Of a stretch of 64,000 bases of DNA, positions 26,205 to 48,086 are shown piece by piece. The notes under the pieces were generated by a model. It was not told the DNA's origin. It saw only the letters and a program-made list of their open reading frames with translations, and ran no database searches. Source of the DNA: Escherichia coli (lineage in GTDB: Bacteria; Pseudomonadota; Gammaproteobacteria; Enterobacterales; Enterobacteriaceae); the NCBI RefSeq assembly GCF_003018255.1, contig NZ_CP027440.1; one strand, given 5' to 3'. The position numbers were made by a program, and so were the translations under genes. Each line of letters starts with the position of its first letter. The stretch's first letter is position 1.

Positions 26205-26215
26205 ACGCCTTATTT

Positions 26216-26587: not shown

Positions 26588-26604
26588 GCTGCCTCCATAC
26601 TCTT

Positions 26605-29434: not shown

Positions 29435-29440
29435 TAACAA

Positions 29441-29475
29441 TTCCCGATAGTCTTTTGCTATCGGGAATATTAACG
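29441..29475 (+). terminator. Putative mutS terminator hairpin
   Basis: TTCCCGATAG-TCTTTTG-CTATCGGGAA perfect 10-bp stem 7 nt after the mutS stop; weak U-tract. Confidence 0.5.
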
Positions 29476-29539
29476 ACAACTGACGAATCAAATAAAAATA
29501 CCCTGTATAATAGGAAATCTTATTTTACAGGGTAAAACC

Positions 29540-30196
29540 ATGCCATCTACACGCTACCAAAAAATCAATGCCCATCACTATCACCATATATGGGCCGTTG
29601 GTGATATTCATGGTGACTATCAATTATTACAATCCCGCTTACATCAACTCTCTTTTTGTCCTGAAACCGACTTGCTTATTTCTGTCGGCGATAACATCGA
29701 TCGTGGGCCCGAGAGTCTTAACGTGCTGCGCCTGTTAAACCAGCCCTGGTTTATCTCCGTCAAAGGCAACCACGAAGCGATGGCGCTTGAGGCATTCGAA
29801 ACTGGCGATGGAAATATGTGGCTTGCCAGCGGTGGTGACTGGTTTTTCGATTTAAATGATTCAGAGCAACAAGAGGCAATAGATCTGTTGCTGAAATTCC
29901 ATCACCTTCCACATATTATTGAAATCACTAACGACACCATAAAATATGTCATCGCACATGCAGATTATCCGGGGAAGGAGTATCAGTTTGGCAAAGAAAT
30001 AGCGGAGAGCGAATTACTCTGGCCTGTTGATCGTGTGCAGAAATCACTTAATAGCGAATTACAAAAAATAAACGGCGCTGATTATTTTATATTTGGACAT
30101 ATGATGTTTGATAACATTCAGACGTTCGCAAACCAGATTTATATTGATACCGGATCGCCGAAAAGCGGGCGGCTGTCATTTTATAAAATAAAGTAG
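29540..30196 (+). CDS. pphB: Serine/threonine protein phosphatase 2 (lambda-PPase-like metallophosphatase)
   Basis: ORF track 218 aa; metallophosphatase motifs GDIHG, GDNIDRG, GNHE; AT-rich relative to neighbours. Confidence 0.92.
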   Translation: MPSTRYQKINAHHYHHIWAVGDIHGDYQLLQSRLHQLSFCPETDLLISVGDNIDRGPESLNVLRLLNQPWFISVKGNHEAMALEAFETGDGNMWLASGGDWFFDLNDSEQQEAIDLLLKFHHLPHIIEITNDTIKYVIAHADYPGKEYQFGKEIAESELLWPVDRVQKSLNSELQKINGADYFIFGHMMFDNIQTFANQIYIDTGSPKSGRLSFYKIK

Positions 30197-30246
30197 TCTC
30201 ATGCTTCTTCTGTGAAGCATGAGTAACCCGGCGTTATTGCAGGTCA

Positions 30247-31016
30247 TTATTCATTTTTCGCTACCAGCAAAGAGAGATCCAGCTTCGCCAGCGCGCGGCT
30301 GGCACTCTCCGGCAGACCATCGTCAGTAATGATCTGATCAAACTCGCTTAATGGTAACGCCAGCCATGTCGCCACCTGTCCATATTTCGTCGCATCACAG
30401 ACCAAAACTCGCTGGCGGCTGGCACTGGCAATCGCCCGTTTCACCGTGACTTTATCTTCTGCTGGCGTAGAGATCCCCCGCACACTCCATGACGATGCAG
30501 AAATAAAAGCCTGATCAATCATCAGGCTACGCAGCATGGTCGCAGCGGCTTCCCCAACACAGGAACGGTTTTCCCGACACACTGCGCCGCCAGTGTGAAT
30601 AATTGTGCAATTACTGTTGTCGAGCAAGTAGTCCGCAATAACGAAGTCGTTAGTAACCACTGTGAGTGGCTCCATGTGAGTCAGATGCTGTGCAATCGCT
30701 AACGTGGTCGTTCCCGCATCCAGATAGATACAACGTCCCGGCTGAACAAGACTTGCCGCCAGCTTGCCAATAGCCGCTTTTTGCGTCATTGCCAGCGCAG
30801 TTTTTACCTGATGAGAAGGTTCATGCGCCACCCGTCCCGGAGACTGGACGCCCCCGGACACCAACACAACGGCTCCCTGCTGCTCCAGTTTTTGTAAATC
30901 CCGACGAATGGTCATATGTGACACATTCATTCTGTCCGTTAGTTCAGCAATACTAACAATGCCTTTTTCAGCTACCATCTCAAGGATGATTTGGCGACGC
31001 TCTACGGGTATCAACT
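30247..31016 (-). CDS. ygbI: DeoR-family transcriptional regulator
   Basis: ORF track frame 30247..31044 (265 aa from ATG); the conserved N-terminus as I recall it (MIPVERRQIILEMV...) would correspond to a TTG start at 31016 preceded by AGGAAGGA; DeoR HTH plus sugar-binding domain. Start codon uncertain (31016 vs 31044). Confidence 0.85.
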
Positions 31017-31209
31017 TTTGCTCCTTCCTTTGTCCTGCTGACATTCTACGCTATTTGCCTGCGAAACGTGCGCGGCGCAACTAACGCTTAGTTCACATAA
31101 AATAACATACAATGTTAATTTTTGTGAATCAGCTCACCATATCGTTATCTTTCCGCGCTTATATTCACAACATCAAACAAAATATCACTTAAATTAACAA
31201 GGAGAGCAG

Positions 31210-32118
31210 ATGAAAACGGGATCGGAGTTTCATGTCGGTATCGTTGGCTTAGGGTCAATGGGAATGGGAGCAGCACTGTCATGTGTCCGCGCAGGTCTTT
31301 CTACCTGGGGCGCAGACCTGAACAGCAATGCCTGCGCTACGTTGAAAGAGGCAGGTGCTTGCGGAGTTTCTGATAACGCCGCGACGTTTGCCGAAAAACT
31401 GGACGCTCTGCTGGTGCTGGTGGTCAATGCGGCCCAGGTTAAACAGGTGCTGTTTGGTGAAACAGGCGTTGCACAACATCTGAAACCCGGTACGGCAGTA
31501 ATGGTTTCTTCCACTATCGCCAGTGCTGATGCGCAAGAAATTGCTACCGCTCTGGCTGGATTCGATCTGGAAATGCTGGATGCGCCAGTTTCTGGTGGTG
31601 CAGTAAAAGCCGCTAACGGTGAAATGACTGTCATGGCCTCCGGTAGCGATATTGCCTTTGAACGACTAGCACCCGTGCTGGAAGCCGTTGCCGGAAAAGT
31701 TTATCGCATAGGTGCAGAACCGGGACTAGGTTCGACCGTAAAAATTATTCACCAGTTGTTAGCGGGCGTACATATTGCTGCCGGAGCCGAAGCGATGGCA
31801 CTTGCAGCCCGTGCGGGGATCCCGCTGGATGTGATGTATGACGTCGTGACCAATGCCGCCGGAAATTCATGGATGTTCGAAAACCGGATGCGTCATGTGG
31901 TGGATGGCGATTACACCCCGCATTCAGCCGTCGATATTTTTGTTAAGGATCTTGGTCTGGTTGCCGATACCGCCAAAGCCCTGCACTTCCCGCTGCCATT
32001 GGCCTCAACAGCATTGAATATGTTCACCAGCGCCAGTAACGCGGGTTACGGGAAAGAAGACGATAGCGCAGTTATCAAGATTTTCTCTGGCATCACCCTA
32101 CCGGGAGCGAAATCATGA
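31210..32118 (+). CDS. ygbJ: NAD-dependent beta-hydroxyacid dehydrogenase (L-threonate dehydrogenase-like)
   Basis: ORF track 302 aa; N-terminal Rossmann GxGxxG (VGIVGLGSMG), 3-hydroxyisobutyrate dehydrogenase family. Confidence 0.92.
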   Translation: MKTGSEFHVGIVGLGSMGMGAALSCVRAGLSTWGADLNSNACATLKEAGACGVSDNAATFAEKLDALLVLVVNAAQVKQVLFGETGVAQHLKPGTAVMVSSTIASADAQEIATALAGFDLEMLDAPVSGGAVKAANGEMTVMASGSDIAFERLAPVLEAVAGKVYRIGAEPGLGSTVKIIHQLLAGVHIAAGAEAMALAARAGIPLDVMYDVVTNAAGNSWMFENRMRHVVDGDYTPHSAVDIFVKDLGLVADTAKALHFPLPLASTALNMFTSASNAGYGKEDDSAVIKIFSGITLPGAKS

Positions 32119-33377
32119 TCAAGATTGGCGTTATCGCCGATGATTTTACCGGCGCGACGGATATCGCCAGTTTTCTGGTGGAAAACGGTCTACCAACGGT
32201 ACAAATTAACGGTGTTCCAACAGGTAAAATGCCGGAAGCAATCGACGCACTGGTGATCAGCCTGAAAACGCGCTCCTGTCCGGTGGTTGAAGCCACACAG
32301 CAATCGCTGGCGGCTCTGAGCTGGTTGCAACAGCAAGGTTGCAAACAGATCTATTTCAAATACTGCTCTACTTTCGACAGTTCGGCGAAAGGTAATATCG
32401 GCCCGGTTACCGATGCATTAATGGATGCTCTCGACACGCCGTTTACGGTCTTCTCTCCGGCCCTGCCGGTCAACGGACGTACGGTTTATCAGGGGTATTT
32501 GTTCGTAATGAATCAACTGCTGGCCGAATCCGGGATGCGCCATCACCCGGTAAATCCCATGACCGACAGCTATCTTCCCCGTCTGGTTGAAGCGCAATCC
32601 ACAGGGCGCTGCGGCGTCGTTTCGGCACATGTTTTCGAACAAGGTGTGGATGCCGTTCGTCAGGAGCTGGCTCGCTTACAGCAAGAGGGCTACCGCTACG
32701 CGGTGCTTGATGCGCTGACCGAACACCATCTGGAAATTCAGGGAGAAGCCTTGCGCGATACCCCACTGGTAACGGGCGGTTCTGGTCTGGCGATTGGCCT
32801 TGCCCGGCAGTGGGCGCAAGAAAACGGTAACCAGGCTCGCGAAGCAGGGCGTCCGCTCGCTGGGCGCGGCGTAGTGCTCTCCGGTTCATGCTCTCAAATG
32901 ACCAACCGCCAGGTGGCACATTACCGTCAAATTGCACCAGCCCGTGAGGTTGATGTGGCACGCTGCCTCTCAACCGAAACTCTGGCCGCTTATGCACACG
33001 AGCTGGCAGAGTGGGTTCTGGGCCAGGAAAGTGTACTTGCTCCACTGGTTTTTGCCACCGCCAGCACTGACGCATTGGCAGCAATTCAACAGCAATACGG
33101 TGCACAAAAAGCCAGTCAGGCAGTGGAAACACTGTTTTCTCAACTAGCGGCGCGGTTAGCAGCGGAAGGCGTGACACGCTTTATTGTCGCAGGCGGTGAG
33201 ACCTCCGGCGTAGTCACACAGAGCCTGGGCATAAAAGGTTTTCATATTGGCCCAACCATTTCCCCCGGCGTGCCGTGGGTAAACGCACTGGATAAGCCTG
33301 TCTCACTCGCCCTTAAATCTGGCAACTTCGGTGATGAAGCCTTTTTTTCACGAGCCCAAAGAGAGTTTTTATCATGA
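32115..33377 (+). CDS. ygbK: DUF1537-family acid-sugar kinase (3-oxo-tetronate kinase-like)
   Basis: ORF track 420 aa; N-terminal MIKIGVIADDFTGATD typical of the four-carbon acid sugar kinase family; operon position. Confidence 0.9.
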   Translation: MIKIGVIADDFTGATDIASFLVENGLPTVQINGVPTGKMPEAIDALVISLKTRSCPVVEATQQSLAALSWLQQQGCKQIYFKYCSTFDSSAKGNIGPVTDALMDALDTPFTVFSPALPVNGRTVYQGYLFVMNQLLAESGMRHHPVNPMTDSYLPRLVEAQSTGRCGVVSAHVFEQGVDAVRQELARLQQEGYRYAVLDALTEHHLEIQGEALRDTPLVTGGSGLAIGLARQWAQENGNQAREAGRPLAGRGVVLSGSCSQMTNRQVAHYRQIAPAREVDVARCLSTETLAAYAHELAEWVLGQESVLAPLVFATASTDALAAIQQQYGAQKASQAVETLFSQLAARLAAEGVTRFIVAGGETSGVVTQSLGIKGFHIGPTISPGVPWVNALDKPVSLALKSGNFGDEAFFSRAQREFLS

Positions 33378-34012
33378 GCGATTTCGCAAAAGTAGAGCAG
33401 TCTTTGCGAGAGGAGATGACGCGGATTGCCAGTTCATTCTTTCAGCGCGGATATGCAACTGGTTCGGCTGGCAATCTGTCGCTGCTTTTACCTGACGGGA
33501 ATTTACTGGCGACACCGACAGGTTCATGCCTGGGCAATCTCGATCCGCAGCGGCTTTCCAAAGTCACCGCGGATGGCGAATGGTTAAGTGGTGACAAACC
33601 CTCGAAAGAGGTGCTCTTTCATCTGGCGCTGTATCGCAACAATCCGCGCTGTAAAGCGGTAGTGCATTTGCACAGTACGTGGTCGACGGCGCTTTCCTGC
33701 CTGGAAGGGCTGGACAGCAATAACGTTATTCGGCCGTTCACACCATACGTGGTGATGCGGATGGGAAACGTCCCGCTGGTGCCCTATTACCGACCGGGCG
33801 ATAAACGCATCGCACAGGATCTGGCGGAACTGGCAGCAGACAATCAGGCTTTTTTACTGGCAAATCATGGCCCAGTGGTTTGCGGTGAAAGCCTGCAAGA
33901 AGCCGCCAACAATATGGAAGAGCTAGAGGAAACGGCAAAGCTGATTTTTATTCTCGGTGACCGCCCGATCCGTTATCTGACCGCAGGTGAAATTGCGGAA
34001 TTAAGGAGTTAA
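33374..34012 (+). CDS. ygbL: Class II aldolase/adducin-family protein (3-oxo-tetronate 4-phosphate decarboxylase-like)
   Basis: ORF track 212 aa; class II aldolase fold signatures (HLHS, NHG), operon position. Confidence 0.9.
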
Positions 34013-34016
34013 TGCA

Positions 34017-34793
34017 ATGCCTCGTTTTGCAGCTAATTTATCCATGATGTTCACCGAAGTGCCTTTTATTGAACGCTTCGCCGCAGCGCGAAAAGCCGGG
34101 TTCGATGCTGTGGAGTTTCTGTTTCCCTATGACTACTCCCCCCAGCAAATCCAGCAGCAACTGGCGCAAAACCACCTGACGCTGGCGCTGTTCAATACCG
34201 CTCCCGGAGATATTAATGCGGGAGAATGGGGATTATCCGCCCTTCCCGGACGTGAGCACGAAGCACGTGCAGACATCGACCTGGCACTGGAATATGCATT
34301 GGCGCTCAATTGTGAACAAGTCCATGTGATGGCAGGCGTCGTGCCCGCTGGCGAAGATGCTGAACGGTACCGGGCAGTATTTATTGATAATCTCCGCTAC
34401 GCTGCCGACCACTTTGCGCCACACGGCAAGCGAATATTGGTTGAAGCACTCAGCCCCGGCGTTAAGCCTCATTATCTCTTCTCCAGCCAGTATCAGGCAC
34501 TGGCTATTGTTGAAGAGGTTGCGCGAGATAACGTTTTTATTCAACTAGATACTTTCCATGCGCAAAAAGTAGATGGCAACCTGACGCATTTAATCCGCGA
34601 CTACGCCGGGAAATATGCGCACGTACAAATTGCCGGACTACCTGATCGACATGAACCGGACGATGGAGAAATCAACTATCCGTGGCTGTTCCGCCTGTTC
34701 GATGAAGTGGGATATCAGGGCTGGATCGGTTGTGAATACAAACCTCGTGGCCTCACCGAAGAAGGACTTGGCTGGTTTGACGCCTGGCGCTAA
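34017..34793 (+). CDS. ygbM: Hydroxypyruvate isomerase-family protein (2-oxo-tetronate isomerase-like, TIM barrel)
   Basis: ORF track 258 aa; [13 protein letters not shown]-terminus of Hyi/OtnI family. Confidence 0.9.
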
Positions 34794-34881
34794 TTCGTTA
34801 AATCCCCAATTACAACGTACCCATACATCCCCCCATCTACGGATGGGGTAGGTTAACTATAACTTTCAGACAGGGTTTCCC

Positions 34882-36246
34882 ATGTCCACAATTACATTGT
34901 TATGCATTGCGTTAACTGGCGTAATCATGCTGTTGCTGCTGGTCATCAAGGCAAAGGTACAACCATTCGTTGCTCTGCTCCTCGTCAGCCTGTTAGTCGC
35001 ACTTGCGGCGGGTATACCGGCGGGCGAAGTGGGTAAAGTGATGATCGCCGGGATGGGCGGTGTGCTTGGTTCCGTCACTATTATTATTGGTCTGGGCGCT
35101 ATGCTGGGGCGTATGATCGAACACTCTGGTGGTGCAGAGTCACTGGCTAATTATTTCAGTCGCAAGTTAGGCGACAAACGAACTATCGCTGCGCTGACTC
35201 TGGCAGCGTTCTTCCTCGGTATTCCCGTCTTCTTTGATGTCGGCTTTATTATTCTTGCGCCAATCATTTACGGTTTTGCCAAGGTTGCCAAAATATCACC
35301 ACTCAAATTTGGTCTGCCTGTCGCTGGGATCATGCTCACTGTTCACGTGGCGGTACCGCCTCATCCAGGCCCTGTCGCCGCAGCGGGGTTACTCCACGCA
35401 GACATCGGCTGGCTAACCATCATCGGTATTGCGATTTCTATTCCCGTAGGGATTGTTGGCTACTTTGCAGCGAAAATAATCAATAAGCGCCAATATGCGA
35501 TGTCGGTCGAGGTACTGGAACAGATGCAACTGGCTCCGGCCAGTGAGGAAGGCGCGACAAAATTAAGCGATAAAATAAATCCACCGGGCGTCGCGCTGGT
35601 CACCTCGCTAATTGTTATTCCTATCGCGATTATCATGGCGGGTACGGTTTCCGCAACACTGATGCCGCCTTCGCATCCCCTGCTTGGTACGCTACAGCTG
35701 ATCGGCTCACCAATGGTAGCTCTAATGATTGCGCTGGTGCTGGCATTCTGGTTATTGGCTTTACGTCGCGGCTGGAGCTTACAACACACCAGCGACATTA
35801 TGGGCTCAGCCCTTCCCACTGCGGCGGTAGTGATTTTGGTTACTGGTGCTGGAGGGGTATTTGGCAAAGTGCTGGTGGAATCGGGCGTCGGTAAAGCCCT
35901 TGCCAACATGTTACAAATGATTGACCTGCCTCTGTTACCAGCCGCATTTATTATTTCACTGGCGCTGCGTGCATCGCAGGGGTCAGCAACCGTAGCAATC
36001 CTGACAACCGGCGGGTTACTCTCAGAAGCGGTGATGGGATTGAATCCAATTCAGTGCGTATTGGTGACGCTGGCAGCCTGCTTTGGTGGGCTTGGCGCGT
36101 CACATATTAATGACTCAGGGTTCTGGATTGTGACCAAATATCTGGGGTTGTCGGTAGCAGACGGGCTGAAAACCTGGACAGTGTTAACGACCATTCTCGG
36201 TTTTACCGGATTCTTAATTACCTGGTGCATATGGGCGGTAATTTGA
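34882..36246 (+). CDS. ygbN: GntP-family acid-sugar permease
   Basis: ORF track 454 aa, multi-pass hydrophobic, GntP-like. Confidence 0.9.
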   Translation: MSTITLLCIALTGVIMLLLLVIKAKVQPFVALLLVSLLVALAAGIPAGEVGKVMIAGMGGVLGSVTIIIGLGAMLGRMIEHSGGAESLANYFSRKLGDKRTIAALTLAAFFLGIPVFFDVGFIILAPIIYGFAKVAKISPLKFGLPVAGIMLTVHVAVPPHPGPVAAAGLLHADIGWLTIIGIAISIPVGIVGYFAAKIINKRQYAMSVEVLEQMQLAPASEEGATKLSDKINPPGVALVTSLIVIPIAIIMAGTVSATLMPPSHPLLGTLQLIGSPMVALMIALVLAFWLLALRRGWSLQHTSDIMGSALPTAAVVILVTGAGGVFGKVLVESGVGKALANMLQMIDLPLLPAAFIISLALRASQGSATVAILTTGGLLSEAVMGLNPIQCVLVTLAACFGGLGASHINDSGFWIVTKYLGLSVADGLKTWTVLTTILGFTGFLITWCIWAVI

Positions 36247-36253
36247 CCTTAAT

Positions 36254-36290
36254 AAAAGGTCCGATGGGCATCGGACCTTTTATTTAGCGC
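36254..36290. terminator. Bidirectional terminator between convergent ygbN and ecdD
   Basis: AAAAGGTCCGAT-GGGC-ATCGGACCTTTTATTT: stem flanked by A-run and T-run, usable on both strands. Confidence 0.75.
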
Positions 36291-36520
36291 TTACCTTCCG
36301 CCAGCAGCGGCGGGATGCTCGGCACCATCGGCGCGTCATCAATATCTTTCTGCGTCATGCGGAACGCTTCGGGATAATGTTCGCGGCTGGTGCGGCGTAG
36401 CGGTTCGGTATCGCGCCAGGTATAGAGGCAATGCTGGCACTGGTAGACCATCCAGACATCTTTTACCGGCGATTTCGCCATCACTTCAATCTGTTCATCG
36501 GCACAACGTGGACAAATCAT
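36284..36520 (-). CDS. ecdD: Small subunit D of hydroxyarylic-acid (4-hydroxybenzoate/vanillate-type) decarboxylase
   Basis: ORF track 78 aa with zinc-ribbon-like Cys pairs (CPRCADEQ ... CQHC); immediately downstream of UbiD-like gene in same operon. Confidence 0.72.
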   Translation of the reverse strand: MICPRCADEQIEVMAKSPVKDVWMVYQCQHCLYTWRDTEPLRRTSREHYPEAFRMTQKDIDDAPMVPSIPPLLAEGKR

Positions 36521-36530
36521 CTTGTTCTCC

Positions 36531-37958
36531 TTATTGACGTGCGGCCAGCATAGCGGTCAGTTTTTCAGCCCAGGCTTTGGTTTCCGGTAAGTCCACCACC
36601 GGCTGGCTGTAGTGACCACGGTTGTCCGGGGCGACAGGCGTGGTGGCGTCGATAATCAGCTTGTCGGTGATCCCCGCCGGACTTGAGCCAGGGTCGAGTT
36701 CCAGCACGGACATATTCGGCAACTGTACCAAATCCCCTGCCGGGTTCACTTTCGAGGAGAGCGCCCACATCACCTGCGGCAGGTTGAACGGATCAACGTC
36801 TTCATCGACCATAATCACCATCTTCACGTAGCCCAGACCGTGCGGCGTGGTCATCGCACGCAGGCCCACCGCGCGGGCAAAGCCGCCGTAGCGTTTTTTG
36901 GTGGAGATAATCGCCAGCAGGCCGTGGGTGTACATGGCGTTTACCGCCTGCACTTCCGGGAACTCGGCTTTCAGTTGTTGATACAGCGGCACGCAGGTGG
37001 CAGGCCCCATCAGGTAGTCGATTTCGGTCCACGGCATACCAAGATAGAGCGATTCGAAAATCGGTTTGGTACGGTAAGAGACTTTATCGATACGCACCAC
37101 GGTCATGTTACGCCCGCCGGAGTAGTGGCCGGTAAACTCACCGAACGGCCCTTCAATCTCACGTTTACGACTTTCGATAACCCCTTCGAGGATCACTTCC
37201 GAGCCCCACGGCACATCAAAACCGGTCAGCGGGGCGGTGGCGATCGGGTACGGGCTTTCGCGCAGCGCGCCTGCCATTTCGTACTCAGACTGATCGTATT
37301 TCAGCGGCGTGGCCCCCATTAGGGTGATGATCGGATCGTTACCGAGTGTGATGGCAATCGGCAGATCTTCACCGCGCTCTTCTGCTTTATGCAGATGCAG
37401 GGCGATATCGTGCATCGGCACCGGTTGCAGGCCGAGCTTACGCTTGCCCTTCACTTCCATGCGGTAGATGCCGACGTTCTGCTTGCCGAAGTTATCCGGG
37501 TCGAGCGGATCGCGGGAAACCACGCACGCTTTATCGAGATAGAAACCGCCATCACCGTCGTTTAAACGAAACAGCGGCAGAATATTGAACAGGTTGATCT
37601 CGTCGCCATCGACGGTGTTCTGCGCCCAGGCTGGATTGGCGCGGCGCTCCGGGGCAATGGGGAAGTTATCCCAGCGGCGGATAAACTCATCAATCTGTTT
37701 TTTAACCGGGGTGTTTGGCGGCAGGCCGAGGGAAATCGCGTGGTTCTGCCAGGAACCGATGGTGTTCATTGCCACGCGGGCATCGATAAAGCCGCGAATA
37801 TTATCAAACCAAAGCGCGGGCGCGCCGTCGCCGATACGCCCGGTGGCGTTGGCTGCGGCTGCCAGATCCGGTTCCGCGTTCACCTCTTCGCTGATTTTCA
37901 GTAACTGGCCGTGGTCATCAAGCGCCTGTAAAAAGCTGCGTAAATCATCAAATGCCAT
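36531..37958 (-). CDS. ecdC: UbiD-family (prenylated-FMN-dependent) decarboxylase, subunit C of hydroxyarylic acid decarboxylase
   Basis: ORF track 475 aa; UbiD-family length and layout; between UbiX-like gene and small D subunit. Confidence 0.88.
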   Translation of the reverse strand: MAFDDLRSFLQALDDHGQLLKISEEVNAEPDLAAAANATGRIGDGAPALWFDNIRGFIDARVAMNTIGSWQNHAISLGLPPNTPVKKQIDEFIRRWDNFPIAPERRANPAWAQNTVDGDEINLFNILPLFRLNDGDGGFYLDKACVVSRDPLDPDNFGKQNVGIYRMEVKGKRKLGLQPVPMHDIALHLHKAEERGEDLPIAITLGNDPIITLMGATPLKYDQSEYEMAGALRESPYPIATAPLTGFDVPWGSEVILEGVIESRKREIEGPFGEFTGHYSGGRNMTVVRIDKVSYRTKPIFESLYLGMPWTEIDYLMGPATCVPLYQQLKAEFPEVQAVNAMYTHGLLAIISTKKRYGGFARAVGLRAMTTPHGLGYVKMVIMVDEDVDPFNLPQVMWALSSKVNPAGDLVQLPNMSVLELDPGSSPAGITDKLIIDATTPVAPDNRGHYSQPVVDLPETKAWAEKLTAMLAARQ

Positions 37959-38551
37959 TATTCATTCTCCTGAGAAAAATTCCGGGCCTGCGGCAATCCT
38001 TGCCAGCGCCTGGCGTGAGGATGTTCGAGGCCAAATTGATCCAGCACGCGGGCTACCACGTGGTGGACAATGTCATCTACCGTTTCGGGATGGTTATAAA
38101 AGGCAGGCATCGGCGGCACCATCGCCACGCCCATGCGCGAAAGTGCGAGCATATTTTCGAGATGGATTGTGCTAAGCGGCATTTCACGCGGCACCAGCAC
38201 CAGTTTGCGGCCTTCTTTGAGCACGACGTCCGCCGCGCGCCCCACCAGGCCATCGGCGTAACCAGCGCGGATACCGGCGAGCGTTTTCATACTGCATGGA
38301 ATAACGATCATGCCGTCGGTACGAAAGGAGCCGGAAGAGATAGTCGCCGCCTGATCCGCCGGGTTATGGCTGAAGTCTGCGAGGGCGGCAACATCGCGAG
38401 CGCTGTAAGGCGTTTCCAGTTCAATCGTGATTTTCGCCCACTTCGACATCACTAGATGAGTCTCGACATTCGGCATCTCCCGCAGCGCTTGCAGTAATGC
38501 CACACCAAGAGGCGCACCGGTAGCCCCTGTCATCCCGACGATCAGTTTCAT
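37958..38551 (-). CDS. ecdB: UbiX-like flavin prenyltransferase (Pad1-type), subunit B
   Basis: ORF track 197 aa; MKLIVGMTGATGA flavoprotein N-terminus typical of UbiX/Pad1. Confidence 0.9.
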   Translation of the reverse strand: MKLIVGMTGATGAPLGVALLQALREMPNVETHLVMSKWAKITIELETPYSARDVAALADFSHNPADQAATISSGSFRTDGMIVIPCSMKTLAGIRAGYADGLVGRAADVVLKEGRKLVLVPREMPLSTIHLENMLALSRMGVAMVPPMPAFYNHPETVDDIVHHVVARVLDQFGLEHPHARRWQGLPQARNFSQENE

Positions 38552-38697
38552 TGCTTACTCTCTTAATTGTTCGTATACGAACGTTATTATTAACATACTC
38601 CTTCATTTCCACAGCGGCAAGGATTGAAAAGTAACAACATCTTCTTCGTCACTGAAAAACCGCTATGATAGCGACAGAGAATTAGCCCGGAGTTTAC

Positions 38698-39105
38698 ATG
38701 GCGTTACGAAATAAAGCGTTCCATCAGTTACGACAGCTTTTTCAGCAGCATACAGCTCGCTGGCAGCACGAGTTACCTGACCTGACCAAACCACAGTACG
38801 CGGTGATGCGCGCCATTGCTGATAAGCCTGGTATCGAACAGGTGGCACTGATAGAAGCAGCAGTCAGCACCAAAGCAACGCTGGCAGAAATGTTGGCAAG
38901 AATGGAAAATCGTGGCTTAGTCAGACGTGAACATGACGCCGCTGACAAGCGGCGACGCTTTGTCTGGCTGACTGCCGAAGGAGAAAAGGTACTTGCTGCG
39001 GCGATCCCCATTGGTGACAGTGTGGATGAGGAATTTTTGGGGCGTTTGAGTGCAGAAGAGCAGGAGCTGTTTATGCAGTTGGTGCGCAAGATGATGAGCA
39101 AATAG
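38698..39105 (+). CDS. MarR/SlyA-family transcriptional regulator
   Basis: ORF track 135 aa; winged-helix region (LTKPQYAVMRAIADKPGIEQVAL ... RREHDAADKRR); divergent from the decarboxylase operon. Confidence 0.82.
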   Translation: MALRNKAFHQLRQLFQQHTARWQHELPDLTKPQYAVMRAIADKPGIEQVALIEAAVSTKATLAEMLARMENRGLVRREHDAADKRRRFVWLTAEGEKVLAAAIPIGDSVDEEFLGRLSAEEQELFMQLVRKMMSK

Positions 39106-39167
39106 GATGCTGATTGCCGGGTAGGACGCTGACGAGTCTTATCCAGGCGACAAAACACACCGACTTC

Positions 39168-39207
39168 CCAAACAAAAGAAAAAGGCCAGCCTCGCTTGAG
39201 ACTGGCC
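39168..39207 (-). terminator. rpoS rho-independent terminator
   Basis: Minus-strand reading: GGCCAGTCTCAAGCGAGGCTGGCC hairpin followed by TTTTTCTTTTGTT. Confidence 0.8.
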
Positions 39208-39225
39208 TTTCTGACAGATGCTTAC

Positions 39226-40218
39226 TTATTCGCGGAACAGCGCTTCGATATTCAGCCCCTGCGTTTGCAGGATTTCGCGCAAACGGCGCAGGCCTTCAAC
39301 CTGAATCTGGCGAACACGTTCACGGGTGAGGCCAATTTCACGACCTACATCTTCCAGTGTTGCCGCTTCGTACCCCAGCAAACCGAATCGACGTGCCAGT
39401 ACTTCACGCTGTTTGGCGTTCAGCTCGAACAGCCATTTGACGATGCTCTGCTTCATATCGTCATCTTGCGTGGTATCTTCCGGACCGTTCTCTTTTTCAT
39501 CGGCCAGGATGTCCAGCAACGCTTTTTCGGAATCACCACCCAGCGGGGTGTCTACCGAGGTAATGCGCTCGTTAAGACGAAGCATACGGCTGACGTCATC
39601 AACTGGCTTATCCAGTTGCTCTGCGATCTCTTCCGCACTTGGTTCGTGGTCCAGTTTATGGGACAACTCGCGTGCGGTTCGCAGGTAAACGTTCAGCTCC
39701 TTTACGATGTGAATAGGCAAACGAATAGTACGGGTTTGGTTCATAATCGCCCGTTCGATCGTCTGGCGAATCCACCAGGTTGCGTATGTTGAGAAGCGGA
39801 AACCACGTTCCGGGTCAAACTTCTCTACCGCGCGGATCAGCCCCAGGTTGCCCTCTTCGATCAGGTCCAGCAACGCCAGACCACGATTGCCATAACGGCG
39901 GGCAATTTTTACCACCAGACGCAAGTTACTCTCGATCATCCGGCGGCGGGAGGCAACATCTCCACGCAGTGCGCGACGCGCAAAATAAACTTCTTCTTCG
40001 GCCGTTAACAGTGGTGAATAACCAATCTCACCAAGGTAAAGCTGAGTCGCGTCCAGCACACGCTGTGTGGCTCCCTGCGATAACAGTTCCTCTTCGGCCA
40101 AATCGTTATCACTGGGTTCCTCTTCTACTAAGGCCTTTTCGTCAAAAACCTCAACTCCGTTCTCATCAAATTCCGCATCTTCATTTAAATCATGAACTTT
40201 CAGCGTATTCTGACTCAT
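39226..40218 (-). CDS. rpoS: RNA polymerase sigma factor RpoS (sigma-38)
   Basis: ORF track frame 342 aa; start placed at [21 protein letters not shown] (330 aa); sigma70-family regions 2-4. Confidence 0.97.
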
Positions 40219-40790
40219 AAGGTGGCTCCTACCCGTGATCCCTTGACGGAACATTCAAGCAAAAGCCTGGTTCCGCCGATTTATCGCTGCGGCAAATAAC
40301 GCAGCGGGTTTACGGATTTCCCCTTGTAACGAATTTCAAAATGCAAGCGTGTTGAACTGGTTCCGGTGCTACCCATGGTTGCTATTTTTTGCCCCGCCTT
40401 CACTTCTTGTTGTTCCCGGACCAGCATTGTGTCGTTATGGGCGTAGGCACTCAGGTAATCATCATTATGTTTGATGATAATCAGATTACCGTAGCCGCGC
40501 AGCGCGTTACCGGCATAAACAACGCGGCCATCTGCGGTCGCGATAATTGCCTGTCCTTTGCTGCCTGCGATATCAATCCCCTTGTTGCCCCCCTCAGAAG
40601 CGCCAAAGGTTTCGATCACTTTGCCCTCAGTCGGCCAGCGCCAGGTGGAGATAGGCGTACTGGTTGATGTACTGCTGACAGTCGGCTCGGTTGTGCTTGC
40701 TGTTGGTACCGTTACAGGCGCTGTGACCGTGGTCGCAGTTGGCTTGTTGTTCGGCAACATTTTGTTAGCACTCTGTTCACCCGAAGACTC
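40219..40790 (-). promoter_or_regulatory. rpoS long 5' leader and main promoter, embedded in the nlpD coding region
   Basis: From established E. coli knowledge (rpoS transcribed from a promoter inside nlpD with a leader of several hundred nt); only the gene arrangement is seen here, the promoter itself was not mapped. Confidence 0.5.
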
Positions 40791-41420
40791 AGAATACGTA
40801 ATTGTCGGTTGCGACGCAACAGCAACGGTGGAATTTTGTGCAGGCTTGATCACAACTCCTTGCTCTGCTGCGTCGGCCTGGGTAATGGCATTTCCGCCAG
40901 TGATTGGCGTACCGGAAGCATTACCCACCTGTAAGGTCTGACCGACGTTCAGCGCGTATGGTGCCTGAATATTGTTGCGCTGAGCAAGGTCACGGAAATC
41001 GTTGCCAGTAATCCAGGCGATATAGAAAAGTGTGTCGCCTTTTTTCACGGTATAGGTACTGCCGCTATAACTGCCTTTCGGAATGTTCCCATACTGACGG
41101 TTGTAGACGATGCGTCCGTTTTCCATCTGTACCGGCTGCTGAGCTACTGGCTGTACTGGCTGGATTTGCGGTTGTTGAGTAGCCTGAATTTGTGGCTGCT
41201 GTACCGGCTGAATTTGCGGTTGCTGCGCTGTAGACGTCGTCCCCATTTTCGGCGGCGGCGTAATCAACATACCAGAATTGGTATTTGCAGGCGCATTGCC
41301 ATTAACGGAGCTGACCGGTGCCGGTGGATTTGAAGTGTCAGAACAGCCTGCCAGCCATAGCGAAACCAGTGACAAAGCCGCAATGCGGCGAACGGTGAAT
41401 TTTGGGCTTCCCGCGCTCAT
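40281..41420 (-). CDS. nlpD: Murein hydrolase activator lipoprotein NlpD (LysM + M23 peptidase-like)
   Basis: ORF track 379 aa; lipobox LAGCS, Q/P-rich repeat linker, LysM and LytM domains. Confidence 0.95.
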
Positions 41421-41559
41421 TTATCCCCCAGGAAAAATTGGTTAATAACCAGTGACATAATTACCGTGCAAGGCACCATACTGAACACTGGAAAAGATGT
41501 TCACGATACGCTGACCTGCGGCAAAATAACCAGGAAAAATCCAGGTATTTCCTCACGTT

Positions 41560-42921
<1,362 letters not shown>

Positions 42922-42941
<20 letters not shown>

Positions 42942-43971
42942 AATCACCTGTTGTGTTGATAAGTTCCCTGACAACGCTGGTTGCAAAACTTCCCGCCGGA
43001 AGCCAGAAACGGATTTCTACGGTGACGTCATCCCACCAGTTCCAGCTTAATTGTTGCGGATACAGCAGCATCGCTCTGCGCGCGGCTTCAACTTTTTCGC
43101 GCACCAGTAAGGTTTGTAATTCAGTTTCTTCGGCGACAGCTGCTTGTTCGAATGCCAGCGCTTCACGCTGAGTTCCCCATTCGCCACTGCCCGGCAATGC
43201 GGCGGTTATCATCAGCTCTTTATCGTTGACGCGACGCTGTAATTCCGCCAGTTCTTCGGTGGTTGCAACAAACCAGCTACCACGTCCGGCTAATTGTAGC
43301 GCATCGCCGTCAACAACTTGATTAACGTCTGCTTTTTTGAGGCGCTCAGCAACAATCTGATTAAACAACGCACTGCGGGCTGCCGACAACCAAAAACTCC
43401 GTTTATTGCGATCGCGCACCGGAGTATTGGTTTGCGCCCAACGCAGCGCGCCCTGCAAGTTGCTACCGCCAATCCCAAAACGTTGGGCACCGAAGTAGTT
43501 CGGTACACCTTTTACGCAAATATCGATCAGACGTTGTTCAACGTCATCGCGATTGCTCACTTCGCGTAGTACCAGGGTAAAGGCGTTACCTTTCAGCGCC
43601 CCTAAACGCAGCTTGCGCTTGTGCCGCGCATACTCCAGCACCTGGCAGCCTTCCAGTTGAAAGGCGCTCAGATCGGGCATCTCTTTGCCCGGCACGCGAG
43701 CGCATAACCACTGTTCCGTAACAGCATGTTTATCTTTTTGCCCAGCGAAGCTGACTTCACGGGCATGAATTTTCAGGAATTTCGCCAGTGCATCCGCCAC
43801 AAAACGGGTATTGCAGCCGTTTTTGAGGATTCTAACCAGAATATGCTCACCTTCACCATCAGGCTCAAAGCCCAAATCTTCCACCACCACAAAGTCTTCC
43901 GGATTGGCTTTCAGCAGCCCGGTGCCTTGCGGTTTACCGTGGAGGTAAGTGAGATTATCAAACTCAATCAT
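42922..43971 (-). CDS. truD: tRNA pseudouridine(13) synthase TruD
   Basis: ORF track 349 aa; operon position between ispF and surE. Confidence 0.94.
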
Positions 43972-44447
43972 TTTGTTGCCTTAATGAGTAGCGCCACCGC
44001 TTCACAGGCAATCCCTTCCCCACGTCCGGTAAATCCCAGTTTTTCCGTAGTAGTGGCTTTCACGTTAACATCATCCATATGGCAGCCGAGATCTTCGGCA
44101 ATAAACACGCGCATTTGTGGAATGTGCGGCAACATCTTCGGTGCCTGAGCGATGATAGTGACATCGACGTTGCCGAGGGCATAACCTTTCGCCTGAATAC
44201 GACGCCAGGCTTCGCGCAACAGCTCGCGGCTGTCGGCACCTTTAAATGCCGGATCGGTATCCGGGAACAGCTTGCCTATATCTCCCAGCGCCGCCGCGCC
44301 AAGCAATGCATCGGTCAACGCATGGAGCGCCACGTCGCCATCAGAATGCGCCAGCAGCCCTTTTTCGTAAGGAATGCGTACGCCACCAATGATAATTGGG
44401 CCTTCACCGCCAAAGGCGTGTACGTCAAAACCGTGTCCAATTCGCAT
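43968..44447 (-). CDS. ispF: 2-C-methyl-D-erythritol 2,4-cyclodiphosphate synthase
   Basis: ORF track 159 aa; [12 protein letters not shown] zinc-binding N-terminus. Confidence 0.96.
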
Positions 44448-45157
44448 TATGTATTCTCCTGATGGATGGTTCGGGTGAGGTAAAATTCGGCCAGCGCCAA
44501 ATCCTCCGGGCGCGTTACCTTGATGTTATCCGCGCGGCCTTCAACAAGTTGCGGATGAAAACCGCAATATTCCAGCGCCGAGGCCTCATCGGTAATGGTA
44601 GCGCCTTCATTTAGAGCGCGCGTCAGGCAGTCATGTAACAGCTCACGAGGGAAAAATTGCGGCGTCAGCGCGTGCCATAAGCCGTTGCGATCAACGGTAT
44701 GAGCAATGGCATTTTTGCCCGGTTCGGCACGTTTCATCGTATCGCGCACCGGCGCAGCGAGGATCCCCCCCGTGCGGCTGGTTTCGCTCAACGCCAACAA
44801 TCGCGCGAGGTCATCCTGATGCAGACAAGGACGAGCGGCGTCATGCACCAATACCCACTGCGCGTCGCCAGCGGCTTTCAGACCTGCCAGCACGGAATCG
44901 GCACGCTCTTCACCACCATCAACAACCGTGATTCGTGGATGATTCGCCAGAGGAAGTTGTGCAAAGCGGCTATCGCCAGGACTTATGGCAATGACGACAC
45001 GTTTCACCCTGGGATGCGCCAGCAGCGCATACACCGAGTGTTCAAGAATGGTTTGATTACCGATTGAGAGATATTGCTTAGGACATTCCGTTTGCATTCG
45101 GCGGCCAAATCCGGCCGCCGGAACCACGGCGCAAACATCCAAATGAGTGGTTGCCAT
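44447..45157 (-). CDS. ispD: 2-C-methyl-D-erythritol 4-phosphate cytidylyltransferase
   Basis: ORF track 236 aa; [11 protein letters not shown] nucleotide-binding motif. Confidence 0.96.
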
Positions 45158-45175
45158 GTTAATTCCCGGGCTGAT

Positions 45176-45487
45176 TTATCGATTATTTTGCCCCGCAGAC
45201 TGTGCGCGCTTTGACGCGTCAGGCACCAGACGATAAAACGTTTCGCCCGGCCTGGTCATGCTGAGTTCATTACGCGCACGCTCTTCGAGCGCCTCCTGGC
45301 CGCCATTGAGATCGTCAATTTCGGCAAAAAGCTGATCGTTTCGCGCTTTAAGTTTCGCGTTTGTAGCTTGCTGTGCCGCCACATCATTATTGACGCGAGT
45401 ATAGTCATGTATACCGTTCTTACCGAACCACAGCGAATACTGTAGCCAGACCAGAATAGCCAGCAACAGCAGCGTTAGTTTACCCAT
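45176..45487 (-). CDS. ftsB: Cell division protein FtsB
   Basis: ORF track 103 aa; N-terminal TM helix then coiled coil. Confidence 0.94.
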
Positions 45488-45679
45488 CCTGCCCCCTGAA
45501 AAACGGCATCTTCATCCCATGCATCCGAAGACGACTCTACATCCTCTGTTGGGGATACCGCGACAACGCGGGCAAATGTACCACATTTGTCCATTGTTAC
45601 GTATACCCAGGGCGTGCAGAACATAATCTCATTATTAGTTACGGATTGAATTATGAACAGAATAGAGAGGAAAGAACAA

Positions 45680-46003
45680 TTAACCCAGTAGCCACATAAA
45701 CAGCGCACCAAACATAATGCCAACCGTCGCCAGAGTGAAAACAATACTGTAGCGTAGCTTTCCGTCCATCAATGAATGCAGTGCAATCCCCACCACTACA
45801 GCGACGGGCATCAGCGCCAGAAAGAAAGGCCAGGTGTAGATAAAAAAGAGCAGCGTGTTAGAGCCATAAATCAACATCGGAATTGCCAACGCGCACAGCC
45901 ACGATAAAAAACCAACCACAGCGCCTGGCAGCGACCATGTGGTGTCTTCAACCTCAGTAAGGCTGTCGTTATTTGTTAATGTAATGTTGTGGCTGTTACG
46001 CAT
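45680..46003 (-). CDS. ygbE: Inner membrane protein YgbE (DUF3561)
   Basis: ORF track 107 aa, three predicted hydrophobic helices; position between ftsB and cysC. Confidence 0.82.
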   Translation of the reverse strand: MRNSHNITLTNNDSLTEVEDTTWSLPGAVVGFLSWLCALAIPMLIYGSNTLLFFIYTWPFFLALMPVAVVVGIALHSLMDGKLRYSIVFTLATVGIMFGALFMWLLG

Positions 46004-46052
46004 ATCTGATCCTGTTACTTTGACGAACCGGGCATGGAAACCCGGCGGTGTC

Positions 46053-46658
46053 TCAGGATCTGATAATATCGTTCTGTCTCAACAGATCTAATAATTGCTG
46101 TACCAAATTTGTTACTAATTGTTCACCATTGAGATGAATTTCTGCCGATTCAGGCGCTTCGTAAACGGAATCTATTCCCGTAAAGTTGCGCAGTTCACCG
46201 GCACGCGCTTTCTTATATAAACCTTTTGGATCGCGGGCTTCGCAAATCGCCAGCGGCGTATCGACAAACACTTCGATAAAGCGCCCTTCTCCTACGCGTT
46301 CGCGAACCATCTGGCGTTCGGCGCGGTGTGGCGAGATAAATGCGGTCAGCACCACCAGTCCGGCTTCAACCATCAAATTCGCCACTTCACCAACCCGACG
46401 GATATTCTCTTTACGGTCGGCATCGCTAAAACCGAGATCGCTGCATAATCCGTGGCGAACGTTGTCGCCATCCAGCAGATACGTACTGACGCCAAGTTTA
46501 TGTAACGCCTCCTCCAGCGCCCCCGCGACGGTTGATTTACCGGAACCAGAGAGGCCGGTAAACCACAGCACAACACCACGATGACCGTGGTGCTGTTCGC
46601 GTTGTTGCGGAGTTACTGGGTGGCTATGCCAGACGACGTTTTCGTCATGCAGCGCCAT
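46053..46658 (-). CDS. cysC: Adenylyl-sulfate (APS) kinase
   Basis: ORF track 201 aa; P-loop GLSGSGKST. Confidence 0.96.
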
Positions 46659-48085
46659 TATTTATCTCCCAGTAAATCGCGCGCACCCCAATGCGGGAAA
46701 TGGCGGCGAACCAGGGCATTCAATTCCAGTTCGAATGCACTGAATTCAGATGGCGCAGCAGTTGCCTGGCTAACTGGTTCGTGCACCATACCGGCACCTA
46801 CGGTCACATTACTCAGGCGATCGATAAAAATCAGCCCACCGGTAACCGGGTTTTGCTGATAACGATCTAACACCAGTGGCTCGTCAAAGGTGAGATCTAC
46901 CAGGCCGATGCCGTTCAGCGGCAGGTTTTCAACTTCGCGTTGGGTAAGGTTATTGATATCAACCTGATAACGAATGCCATCAACACGAGCACGCGTCTTC
47001 TTACCGGCAATTTTGATGTCATAACTCTGGCCCGGGGAAAGCGGCTGTTCCGCCATCCATACCACATCCACCGACGCGCTCTGCACAGCCGGTAACGCTT
47101 CGTCTGCCGCCAGCAGCAGATCGCCACGGCTGATGTCGATCTCATCCGTCAGCACCAGGGTGATCGCTTCTCCGGCAAAGGCTTCTTCGCGATCGCCATC
47201 AAAAGTCACGATCCGCGCGACGTTTGATTCCACACCAGAGGGCAGCACTTTGACACGTTGCCCGACTTCCACGCGACCGGATGCCAGCGTTCCGGCGTAG
47301 CCACGAAAATCGAGATTCGGACGGTTAACGTACTGCACCGGGAAGCGCATTGGCTGAGCATCCACCACTCGCTGGATCTCCACGGTTTCCAGCACTTCGA
47401 GCAGTGTCGGACCGCTGTACCACGGCATACTTTCACTTTGCGAAGCCACATTGTCGCCTTCCAGTGCAGAGAGCGGCACAAAGCGGATATCCAGATTACC
47501 CGGCAGCTGCCCGGCAAACGTCAGATAATCTTCGCGAATACGGGTGAACGTCTCTTCACTGTAACCCACCAGATCCATTTTGTTGATCGCCACGACCAGA
47601 TGTTTGATCCCCAACAGTGTGGAGATAAAACTGTGACGACGGGTTTGATCGAGCACGCCTTTACGGGCATCGATCAGTAAGATCGCCAGTTCACATGTCG
47701 ATGCGCCAGTCGCCATATTGCGGGTGTACTGCTCGTGCCCTGGGGTATCGGCGATAATAAATTTACGCTTCTCGGTAGAGAAATAACGGTAAGCCACGTC
47801 AATGGTGATGCCCTGTTCGCGCTCAGCTTGCAGGCCGTCCACCAGCAGAGCCAGATCCAGCTTTTCGCCCTGGGTGCCGTGACGTTTACTGTCGTTATGC
47901 AGCGATGAGAGCTGATCTTCGTAGATTTGGCGGGTATCGTGCAGCAGGCGACCAATCAGGGTACTTTTGCCGTCATCGACGCTACCACAGGTCAGAAAAC
48001 GCAGCAGGCTTTTATGTTGTTGCGCAATCATCCATGCTTCGACGCCGCCTTCATTGGCGATTTGTTGTGCAAGTGCGGTGTTCAT
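46658..48085 (-). CDS. cysN: Sulfate adenylyltransferase subunit 1 (GTPase)
   Basis: ORF track 475 aa; EF-Tu-like GTPase motifs ([14 protein letters not shown]). Confidence 0.96.
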
Positions 48086-48086
48086 C

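Follow-up and report, generated by a model that had tools for sequence, protein, structure and literature searches.

What is the DNA that separates ygbN from rpoS in this Escherichia coli genome, what does it encode, and is it a newcomer to the interval or a resident that other strains have lost? Within the window (the whole stretch of 64,000 nucleotides that was analysed), the interval between the stop codons of the two genes extends over 36247-39225. We are confident that it holds the hosA-vdcBCD locus of the E. coli chromosome, which specifies a 4-hydroxybenzoate-inducible, non-oxidative and reversible hydroxyarylic acid decarboxylase and is also known under the names ecdBCD, kpdBCD, pad1-yclC-yclD and 'slyA'. 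Gene content, family membership, motif conservation, the sequence and position of the operator, and the distribution among genomes are direct observations; the enzyme activity, the ligand of HosA and the repression are published for near-identical orthologues, and the promoter hexamers are inferred. The enzymes, the cofactor chemistry, the regulator with its ligand, operator and crystal structure, and the polymorphism among strains have all been published already. The RefSeq annotation is correct, with the same four genes annotated in 2,380 complete E. coli genomes, and all four exact protein sequences were already public.

The segment and its boundaries

According to the ORF list, the gene order is ygbN (+), vdcD (-), vdcC (-), vdcB (-), hosA (+) and rpoS (-), and the four inner ORFs, which together cover 36284-39105, are all intact. 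The first-pass annotation described a UbiX-like protein, a UbiD-like protein, a small Cys-rich subunit and a divergent MarR gene, a reading confirmed by the ORFs, Pfam, the NCBI models and the structures; the family assignments of VdcB, VdcC, VdcD and the MarR protein are far beyond chance. The left flank is ygbN (o454; 34882..36246, + strand), with which the ygbI-ygbN cluster ends and which encodes a GntP-family transporter (NF007332, 827 bits, cut-off 524) and is named ygbN in matching genomes. The right flank is rpoS (39226..40218, - strand; 330 aa; NF004207, 604 bits), named so in all matching genomes, the 342-aa rpoS ORF in the ORF list being a mechanical extension upstream.

The genes were said to lie between the ygbN and rpoS terminators, and hairpins were indeed found at both places. 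An inverted repeat at 36248..36287, with 19-nt arms that are 95% complementary and a 2-nt loop, is common to the convergent ygbN and vdcD, such that the T-tract and right arm of the hairpin contain the vdcD stop codon (36284-36286); the hairpin persists in K-12-type genomes as far as 36284. The second inverted repeat, the rpoS terminator at 39179..39212 (15 pairs, 7 of them G-C, then a T-run), is the sole terminator-like structure 3' of the convergent hosA, and homology to K-12-type genomes starts again at its first nucleotide, 39179. In the comparison with these genomes, the missing DNA is 36285-39178, that is, 2,894 bp, and the K-12 junction contains a 7-nt filler, GTGCACA, without counterpart in the window. 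In an Rfam scan of 34000-42000, no RNA family passed the threshold. Comparison of sequences by eye reveals a REP-like sequence (39116..39148) in the gap from hosA to the rpoS terminator, and a sequence that resembles it, again by eye, lies at the end facing rpoS in the alternative insert of B2-type genomes. A CRISPR array was picked up by a repeat search and missed by Tandem Repeats Finder.

Variation and history of the interval

The location of the segment within the polymorphic mutS-rpoS interval, also noted at the first pass, is borne out by a comparison across 5,426 complete E. coli genomes, which updates earlier PCR-based counts and distinguishes four types of interval: the window type (1,592 genomes, counted by the ygbN-vdcD junction), the O157 type (807, by the pphB-vdcD junction), the K-12 type, without the segment (1,944), and the B2 type (1,040). 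Polymorphism patterns I-IV of the o454-nlpD, or mutS-rpoS, region were reportedly described earlier by LeClerc in 1999, Herbelin in 2000, Culham and Wood in 2000, and Kotewicz in 2003. Pattern IV, the EPEC type, consists of o454 (ygbN), kpdD, kpdC, kpdB, 'slyA' and rpoS (Ewers et al., 2014), and the window matches this gene order exactly. Thus, the interval is of pattern IV, which in terms of typing marks the strain as 'pattern IV' E. coli, and not of the O157:H7 type (pattern I) to which the gene set had been assigned at first, because the window keeps the ygbI-ygbN cluster between pphB and vdcD, whereas in O157:H7 the cluster is missing and pphB adjoins vdcD. The window differs from the published scheme in having a TOBE-domain gene between fhlA and mutS, whereas the long fhlA-mutS amplicon was there confined to pattern III (B2) (Ewers et al., 2014).

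Should the segment then be considered an insert? Relative to K-12, the description of a ~2.9-kb insert and of an interval that is not identical to the K-12 arrangement stands, but in evolutionary terms it does not, given that hosA-vdc(B)CD is found within 6 kb of rpoS in 51 of the 80 species loci, in Citrobacter, Enterobacter, Klebsiella, Kluyvera, Kosakonia, Leclercia, Salmonella and others. In Enterobacteriaceae, the hosA-vdc locus has belonged to the rpoS-mutS interval since ancestral times, and its absence is the derived state; because the cluster is located beside rpoS in so many species, we conclude that the segment was lost or replaced in E. coli of the K-12 and B2 types.

The position of hosA-vdcBCD directly 3' of rpoS in most of the Enterobacteriaceae loci examined, with the E. 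coli hosA convergent and sharing a terminator with rpoS, might conceivably be functional, in that variants of the segment would alter the 3' context of rpoS and contribute to the known differences in RpoS level between strains. We consider this very unlikely; if it were true, four common E. coli variants would act on rpoS via read-through, antisense transcription or terminator efficiency. In some other genera, about 2.6 kb of extra DNA is present between rpoS and hosA.

It is likewise very unlikely that the segment represents a horizontally acquired island tied to pathogenic strains. The absence of the segment from K-12 and B2 genomes and its G+C content (0.56-0.60, compared to about 0.50-0.53 in the flanks) are compatible with such an origin, and a 2024 preprint has HosA passing from Shigella dysenteriae into pathogenic E. 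coli. Furthermore, one clear case of inter-genus exchange is detectable, with 84-86% of the synonymous third positions of vdcC and vdcD identical between Pseudocitrobacter and the window, compared to 42% in hosA and 63% in mutS. However, synonymous-site identity in most genera is 59-69% for vdcC, 52-63% for mutS and 58-79% for rpoS, a pattern expected under vertical descent, and the cross-genus synteny with rpoS argues against an island in general and against the Shigella-to-E. coli transfer of hosA proposed in the preprint in particular. Nor does the segment show mobility genes or flanking direct repeats, the search for the latter at its boundaries, as the trace of an insertion or deletion, having returned only short matches at chance level. 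The segment has 2,419 matches, all of them chromosomal and none on plasmids, and it occurs in 44% of the complete genomes, among them numerous commensals and isolates from animals. Long residence, followed by loss or replacement in some lineages, therefore remains the reading that we adopt. The allele is rare: across the segment, identity reaches 99% or more in a single one of the 5,426 complete genomes and is 95-98% in most. Its DNA differs by about 4% from the majority of copies in E. coli, but its proteins are still 97-99% identical to those that have been studied.

The decarboxylase

The three genes vdcB, vdcC and vdcD are arranged as one operon: they are co-oriented in the order B-C-D, the vdcB stop codon overlaps the vdcC start at 37958, the vdcC-vdcD gap is 10 nt, and there is one terminator, 3' of vdcD. 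Comparison with characterised systems, the obvious check on the initial reading, confirms the identity of all three, as each exceeds the cut-off of its NCBI curated model and they match the structures 1SBZ and 7AE4. The product of vdcB (ecdB/kpdB/pad1; 37958..38551, - strand), a UbiX-family flavin prenyltransferase of 197 aa, scores 311 bits with the VdcB model NF041206 (cut-off 290), 150.8 bits with Pfam Flavoprotein and 246 bits with TIGR00421, and aligns over residues 1-197 with Pad1 of E. coli O157:H7 (1SBZ, E 1e-128). The catalytic subunit, encoded by vdcC (ecdC/kpdC/yclC; 36531..37958, - strand), is a UbiD-family decarboxylase of 475 aa, dependent on prenylated FMN (prFMN), with the UbiD_N, UbiD and UbiD_C domains of Pfam and 788 bits against the VdcC model NF041204 (cut-off 650). 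Its alignment with ShVdcC of 7AE4 (E 6e-160) covers residues 3-471 of the 475, with E269 and E274 of the EGPFGE motif (269-274) aligned to E273 and E278 of ShVdcC; N161 and R166 are found within QNVGIYR, and the Glu-Arg-Glu catalytic motif is intact. The third gene, vdcD (ecdD/kpdD/yclD; 36284..36520, - strand), encodes a zinc-ribbon subunit of 78 aa, which binds to VdcC and activates it (VdcD model NF041205, 119.8 bits, cut-off 30); it matches the ShdD chain in 7AE4 (E 4.8e-11), and its Cys 3, 6, 28 and 31, in two CxxC knuckles, are at the positions of the Zn ligands of ShVdcD.

Which characterised systems come closest? EcdBCD (Pad1-YclC-YclD) with HosA of E. coli O157:H7, EPEC and UMN026 consists of the same four genes in the same order and orientation, and the O157:H7 copies are 99% identical to VdcC, VdcB and VdcD of the window and 97% identical to its HosA, with an identical operator; the left neighbour differs, being ygbN here and pphB there. 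Orthologous operons of Klebsiella and Enterobacter occupy the same site beside rpoS, with VdcC 96-97% identical to that of the window, and the Klebsiella operon converts 4-hydroxybenzoate (4-HBA) to phenol. Far more distant are the Firmicutes homologues ShVdcCD of Sedimentibacter hydroxybenzoicus and BsdBCD of Bacillus subtilis (structures 7AE4, 7AE5 and 7AE7; E 5e-11 for the D subunit), which nevertheless have the same subunit composition and share with the window the four Zn-binding cysteines of the D subunit and the Glu-Arg-Glu motif.

The substrate, which had been held to be unreadable from the sequence, is supplied by published work: the ligand of HosA is 4-hydroxybenzoate, and a review table places the O157:H7 enzyme, EcdCD, among the 4-hydroxybenzoate decarboxylases. 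From the headings of that table we infer that compounds 49a and 57a are 4-hydroxybenzoate and vanillate, which would make vanillate the second substrate of the O157:H7 enzyme. According to published work, the orthologues from O157:H7, Salmonella and Klebsiella decarboxylate 4-hydroxybenzoate and/or vanillate; lysate containing K. pneumoniae kpdBCD converts 4-HBA to phenol, and the published work on ShVdcCD found VdcD to be needed for the activity of VdcC on both 4-HBA and vanillate. By analogy with these enzymes, VdcB, as a UbiX-type prenyltransferase, would produce prenylated FMN, with which VdcC, a UbiD-type hexamer, would remove CO2 from 4-hydroxybenzoate to yield phenol and, less efficiently, act on vanillate to yield guaiacol. 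The 4-Cys zinc ribbon of VdcD is predicted to dock on VdcC beside the catalytic Glu-Arg-Glu loops, and activity would depend on it. The strain is accordingly expected, on the same analogy, to convert 4-hydroxybenzoate, a paraben breakdown product and tyrosine metabolite, to phenol. It is exceedingly improbable that the trio instead decarboxylates protocatechuate (as an AroY-type enzyme) or gallate, or is a redundant copy of the UbiX/UbiD pair of ubiquinone synthesis, for although membership of the UbiX/UbiD superfamily is shared, with AroY, UbiD and Fdc1 structures all detected with VdcC and a related K. pneumoniae enzyme that takes several more hydroxybenzoates, the model scores speak against the AroY, gallate decarboxylase and housekeeping UbiD/UbiX identities (VdcC reaches 174 bits with the UbiD equivalog NF008175, cut-off 788, and passes its own cut-off), the match of VdcC to ShVdcC is much stronger than those to AroY-type structures (E 1e-25 to 1e-28) or E. 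coli UbiD (E 4e-47), a VdcD subunit accompanies VdcC, and the cognate regulator HosA has 4-hydroxybenzoate as its ligand.

HosA and its operator

The 4-hydroxybenzoate/vanillate decarboxylase is accompanied by hosA (38698..39105, + strand), which encodes a MarR-family repressor of vdcBCD and of its own gene (135 aa; Pfam MarR, 45.8 bits, cut-off 24.6), identical in 133 of 134 residues to the 'Transcriptional regulator HosA' of PDB 8AGA. HosA is reported to bind 4-HBA with a KD of 4.7 uM, and its release from DNA by 4-HBA has been published for the proteins of UMN026 and EPEC; HosA represses the decarboxylase operon and hosA itself from a site downstream of the transcription start (Roy and Ranjan, 2016, as cited in later papers). 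An operator was to be expected in 38552-38697, between the divergent vdcB and hosA, and the published 14-bp HosA site is present there, at 38569..38582, as the perfect palindrome GTTCGTATACGAAC, 17 nt 5' of the vdcB start codon. The 26 nt around GTTCGTATACGAAC are identical to oligo T_H, the HosA binding-site probe of PMC6261655, and GTTCG-N4-CGAAC is kept at the same position in 68 of the 76 hosA-bearing loci of other species. By analogy, HosA would bind this palindrome shortly past the vdcB transcription start and so switch off both the operon and hosA, and 4-hydroxybenzoate, on binding HosA, would release it from the DNA and switch the operon on.

A promoter scanner reported no site over 36100-39400, and the vdcB promoter was therefore deduced from cross-genus conservation. 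The putative promoter (38592..38620, - strand) combines a -35 hexamer TTGCCG (38615-38620) and a -10 hexamer TATGTT (38592-38597), separated by a 17-nt spacer; the positions of both hexamers are conserved in the cross-genus alignment, and with 8 of 12 consensus matches they fall under the threshold of the scanner, which explains its silence. With this promoter, the operator would be located at about +3 to +17 of the vdcB transcript, which fits the published placement of the HosA site downstream of the transcription start. A Shine-Dalgarno-like AAGAGAG (38558..38564, - strand) can be read 6 nt 5' of the vdcB ATG.

On the hosA side, the element CTATCATAGC (38662..38671) is conserved across genera and contains, 28 nt 5' of the hosA ATG, a -10-like TATGAT (38664-38669, + strand), which is probably the -10 of the hosA promoter, although its role is uncertain and no convincing -35 was found. 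The palindrome at 38659-38675 was considered as a second HosA site and rejected, being unlike the operator; more probably, it carries the hosA -10. Many other genera have one more operator-like site, located about 65 nt upstream, which is absent from E. coli, and HosA of the orthologous operons in other genera is 70-81% identical to that of the window. In B. subtilis, the regulator, BsdA, is a LysR-type protein in place of the MarR protein.

Layout and identity of the hosA-vdcBCD segment

Compared by BLAST with a K-12-type genome, the interval between ygbN (34882-36246, plus strand) and rpoS (39226-40218, minus strand) differs by 2,894 bp of extra DNA (36285-39178, hereafter the segment), so the first-pass annotation was right that K-12 lacks these genes. 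The ORF list likewise bears out the layout that it had described, namely three abutting, co-oriented minus-strand genes, vdcD (36284-36520, 78 aa), vdcC (36531-37958, 475 aa) and vdcB (37958-38551, 197 aa), and a divergent plus-strand gene of the MarR family, hosA (38698-39105, 135 aa). The convergent ygbN and vdcD share a hairpin with 19-nt arms (36248-36287), and another of 15 pairs (39179-39212) lies downstream of rpoS; K-12 keeps both of these terminators, with 7 nt of unrelated filler at its junction. The REP-like sequence between hosA and the rpoS terminator (39116-39148) resembles the sequence at the end nearest rpoS in the alternative B2-type insert (locus L004, about 5207-5245) and may mark a site of recombination or be a remnant common to both.

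The identities proposed for the products (UbiX-like VdcB, UbiD-like VdcC, small Cys-rich VdcD and a MarR-type regulator) are supported by Pfam, which finds Flavoprotein, UbiD_N/UbiD/UbiD_C and MarR domains, by the NCBIfam models, with 788 bits against a curated cut-off of 650 for VdcC, 311 against 290 for VdcB and 120 against 30 for VdcD, and by structure matches. Among solved structures, VdcB matches Pad1 of E. coli O157:H7 (1SBZ, E 1e-128), VdcC matches ShVdcC (7AE4, E 6e-160, residues 3-471 aligned) and VdcD matches ShVdcD (E 5e-11); the MarR protein is identical at 133 of 134 residues to PDB 8AGA, 'Transcriptional regulator HosA'. The EGPFGE motif of VdcC (269-274) aligns with E273/E278 of ShVdcC, N161 and R166 lie within QNVGIYR, and the motif together with R166 constitutes the Glu-Arg-Glu triad of UbiD enzymes. 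VdcD contains Cys 3, 6, 28 and 31, exactly the residues reported as Zn ligands in ShVdcD. Housekeeping UbiD was rejected as an identity (174 bits against an NCBIfam cut-off of 788). The hosA-vdcBCD locus is already known, and the exact sequences of all four proteins are present in public collections, in tens to more than 1,000 contigs each.

Arrangement and age of the mutS-rpoS interval

The first reading is thus confirmed as an observation and its annotation-level interpretation is right; two of its labels, 'O157:H7-type' and 'insert', need correcting. The order in the window is mutS, pphB, ygbI through ygbN, vdcDCB, hosA, rpoS, as in strain DETEC-S792, whereas O157:H7 lacks the entire ygbI-ygbN cluster and has vdcD immediately after pphB. 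The mutS-rpoS region falls into four patterns (Ewers et al., 2014), and queries specific to a junction or a segment, run over 5,426 complete E. coli genomes, bear out the polymorphism that had been asserted: pattern IV, the EPEC type to which the window belongs (ygbN-vdcD junction), occurs in 1,592 genomes, pattern I, the O157 type (pphB-vdcD junction, o454 absent), in 807, pattern II, the K-12 type (ygbN directly adjoining rpoS), in 1,944, and pattern III, the B2 type (MBL-hydrolase and flavodoxin genes inserted), in 1,040, together 99% of the set. The segment is near-complete in 2,380 complete E. coli genomes, and no match to it is plasmid-borne. Strain GN04979, in which an IS1A element replaces the stretch from mid-pphB to the rpoS terminator (locus L005, 8089-9010), represents a fifth, IS-mediated variant.

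So is the segment an insertion at all? A synteny scan of VdcC relatives, with one genome per species, returned 80 loci, and in 51 of these rpoS lies at most 6 kb from hosA-vdc(B)CD, the usual gene order being nlpD-rpoS-hosA-vdcBCD-(pphB)-mutS. Linkage to rpoS extends over Citrobacter, Enterobacter, Klebsiella, Kluyvera, Kosakonia, Leclercia, Atlantibacter, Franconibacter and other genera; Salmonella and Phytobacter have the cluster in inverted orientation. Rahnella, Pantoea, Erwinia and one Vibrio, all outside the family, also possess it, but away from both rpoS and mutS. In most genera, third-position identity is 59-69% for vdcC versus 52-63% for mutS and 58-79% for rpoS, and this similarity implies that the 97% identity of the VdcC protein reflects strong purifying selection and vertical inheritance. 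Escherichia sp. E1V33 and Pseudocitrobacter have a junction homologous to the pphB-vdcD hairpin of O157:H7. The 'insert' label is therefore apt only by comparison with K-12: the decarboxylase segment is old at the rpoS-mutS site, and the K-12 and B2 states represent loss or replacement. Older literature, that of Herbelin in 2000 and of Kotewicz in 2003, reportedly agrees. The same synteny and synonymous-site evidence speaks against the claim, made in a 2024 HosA preprint, that hosA was transferred from Shigella. A ygbM homologue also lies within the Salmonella interval, so either the presence or the absence of the ygb cluster may be ancestral. That the conserved convergent hosA-rpoS linkage affects rpoS expression, an idea based on the linkage itself, is very improbable; if true, it would be a novel influence on rpoS expression.

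In Enterobacter, Lelliottia, Leclercia and the Klebsiella oxytoca group, some 2.6 kb of other DNA separates rpoS from hosA, so the rpoS-proximal junction is variable outside E. coli too. In Pseudocitrobacter (loci L006, L009 and L010, 6001-7672), vdcC and vdcD are 84-86% identical to those of the window at synonymous sites, versus 60% for vdcB, 42% for hosA, 63% for mutS and 71% for rpoS, a pattern indicating that Escherichia and Pseudocitrobacter have exchanged a vdcC-vdcD patch.

Substrate and the HosA operator

The first-pass annotation held that the sequence does not reveal substrate specificity, which is true, but the substrate is already known from experiments on orthologues; indeed, the literature already answers both the substrate and the operator questions. 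A review table places recombinant EcdCD (E. coli O157:H7), StdBCD (Salmonella), BsdBCD (B. subtilis) and KpBCD (Klebsiella) under '4-hydroxybenzoate decarboxylases' that have one best and one second substrate in common, of which the Streptomyces vanillate decarboxylase accepts only the second; we infer that the compound numbers denote 4-hydroxybenzoate and vanillate. E. coli lysate with kpdBCD converts 4-hydroxybenzoate to phenol, and VdcC activity on both acids requires VdcD. The VdcC of the window is 99% identical to that of O157:H7 and 96-97% identical to those of Klebsiella and Enterobacter. In 12 species loci, hosA directly adjoins vdcC, and no vdcB match reaches 60% coverage; these presumably take prFMN from the housekeeping UbiX.

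The operator, to be sought in 38552-38697, lies 17 nt upstream of the vdcB ATG: GTTCGTATACGAAC (38569-38582) is palindromic over all 14 bp, and the 26 nt around it are identical to the HosA binding-site oligonucleotide in PMC6261655. According to summaries there and in a 2024 preprint on the structure of HosA, the protein acts from a site downstream of the transcription start to repress both its own gene and the decarboxylase operon, and 4-hydroxybenzoate (KD 4.7 uM) frees it from DNA (Roy & Ranjan, 2016). GTTCG-N4-CGAAC occupies the same place in 68 of the 76 hosA-bearing loci of other species. A consensus promoter scanner did not detect a vdcB promoter; an alignment of 18 hosA-vdcB intergenic regions shows a conserved -35 TTGCCG (38615-38620) and, after a 17-nt spacer, a conserved -10 TATGTT (38592-38597). 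This putative promoter would put the operator at about +3 to +17, in agreement with the published roadblock model. Within another conserved element, CTATCATAGC (38662-38671), whose role is uncertain, a -10-like TATGAT would serve hosA. E. coli has a single operator. In many genera, a further operator-like site (e.g. ATCGTATACGAAC) overlaps the vdcB -35 about 65 nt upstream of the main operator, and in some loci of Pantoea, Mixta, Rouxiella and Vibrio two full palindromes are spaced about 70 nt apart.

Recombination in and around the window allele

The segment allele is rare, with at least 99% identity in DETEC-S792 only, 98.6% in three genomes and 95-98% in the rest, and the flanks are nearest to B2-like genomes (99.0-99.3%). 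Compared with O157:H7, mutS (26873-29434) is 92-96% identical in 500-nt bins, 94% overall and 83% at synonymous third positions, whereas rpoS and nlpD are 99-100% identical; so unusual a divergence is in line with the horizontal exchange known for mutS. Against DETEC-S792, blocks of 100% identity within 24000-50500 (24000-29500, 37000-38000, 44500-50500) alternate with blocks of 98-99% (30000-36500, 41000-44000), a recombination mosaic between close relatives. All these peculiarities are signs of an already known regional recombination mosaic and leave the functional reading of the segment unaffected.

Between fhlA and mutS, a gene (25737-26204, plus strand) encodes a protein of 155 aa that carries two TOBE domains and is also annotated in DETEC-S792 and GN04979. 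A long fhlA-mutS amplicon was reported in pattern III strains only (Ewers et al., 2014), whereas the window pairs this gene with pattern IV. Downstream of iap lies a CRISPR array (50366-51068, 61-nt period) with the 29-nt type I-E repeat CGGTTTATCCCCGCTGGCGCGGGGAAC; the spacers of the window and of DETEC-S792 are different, and identity there falls to 70-86%.
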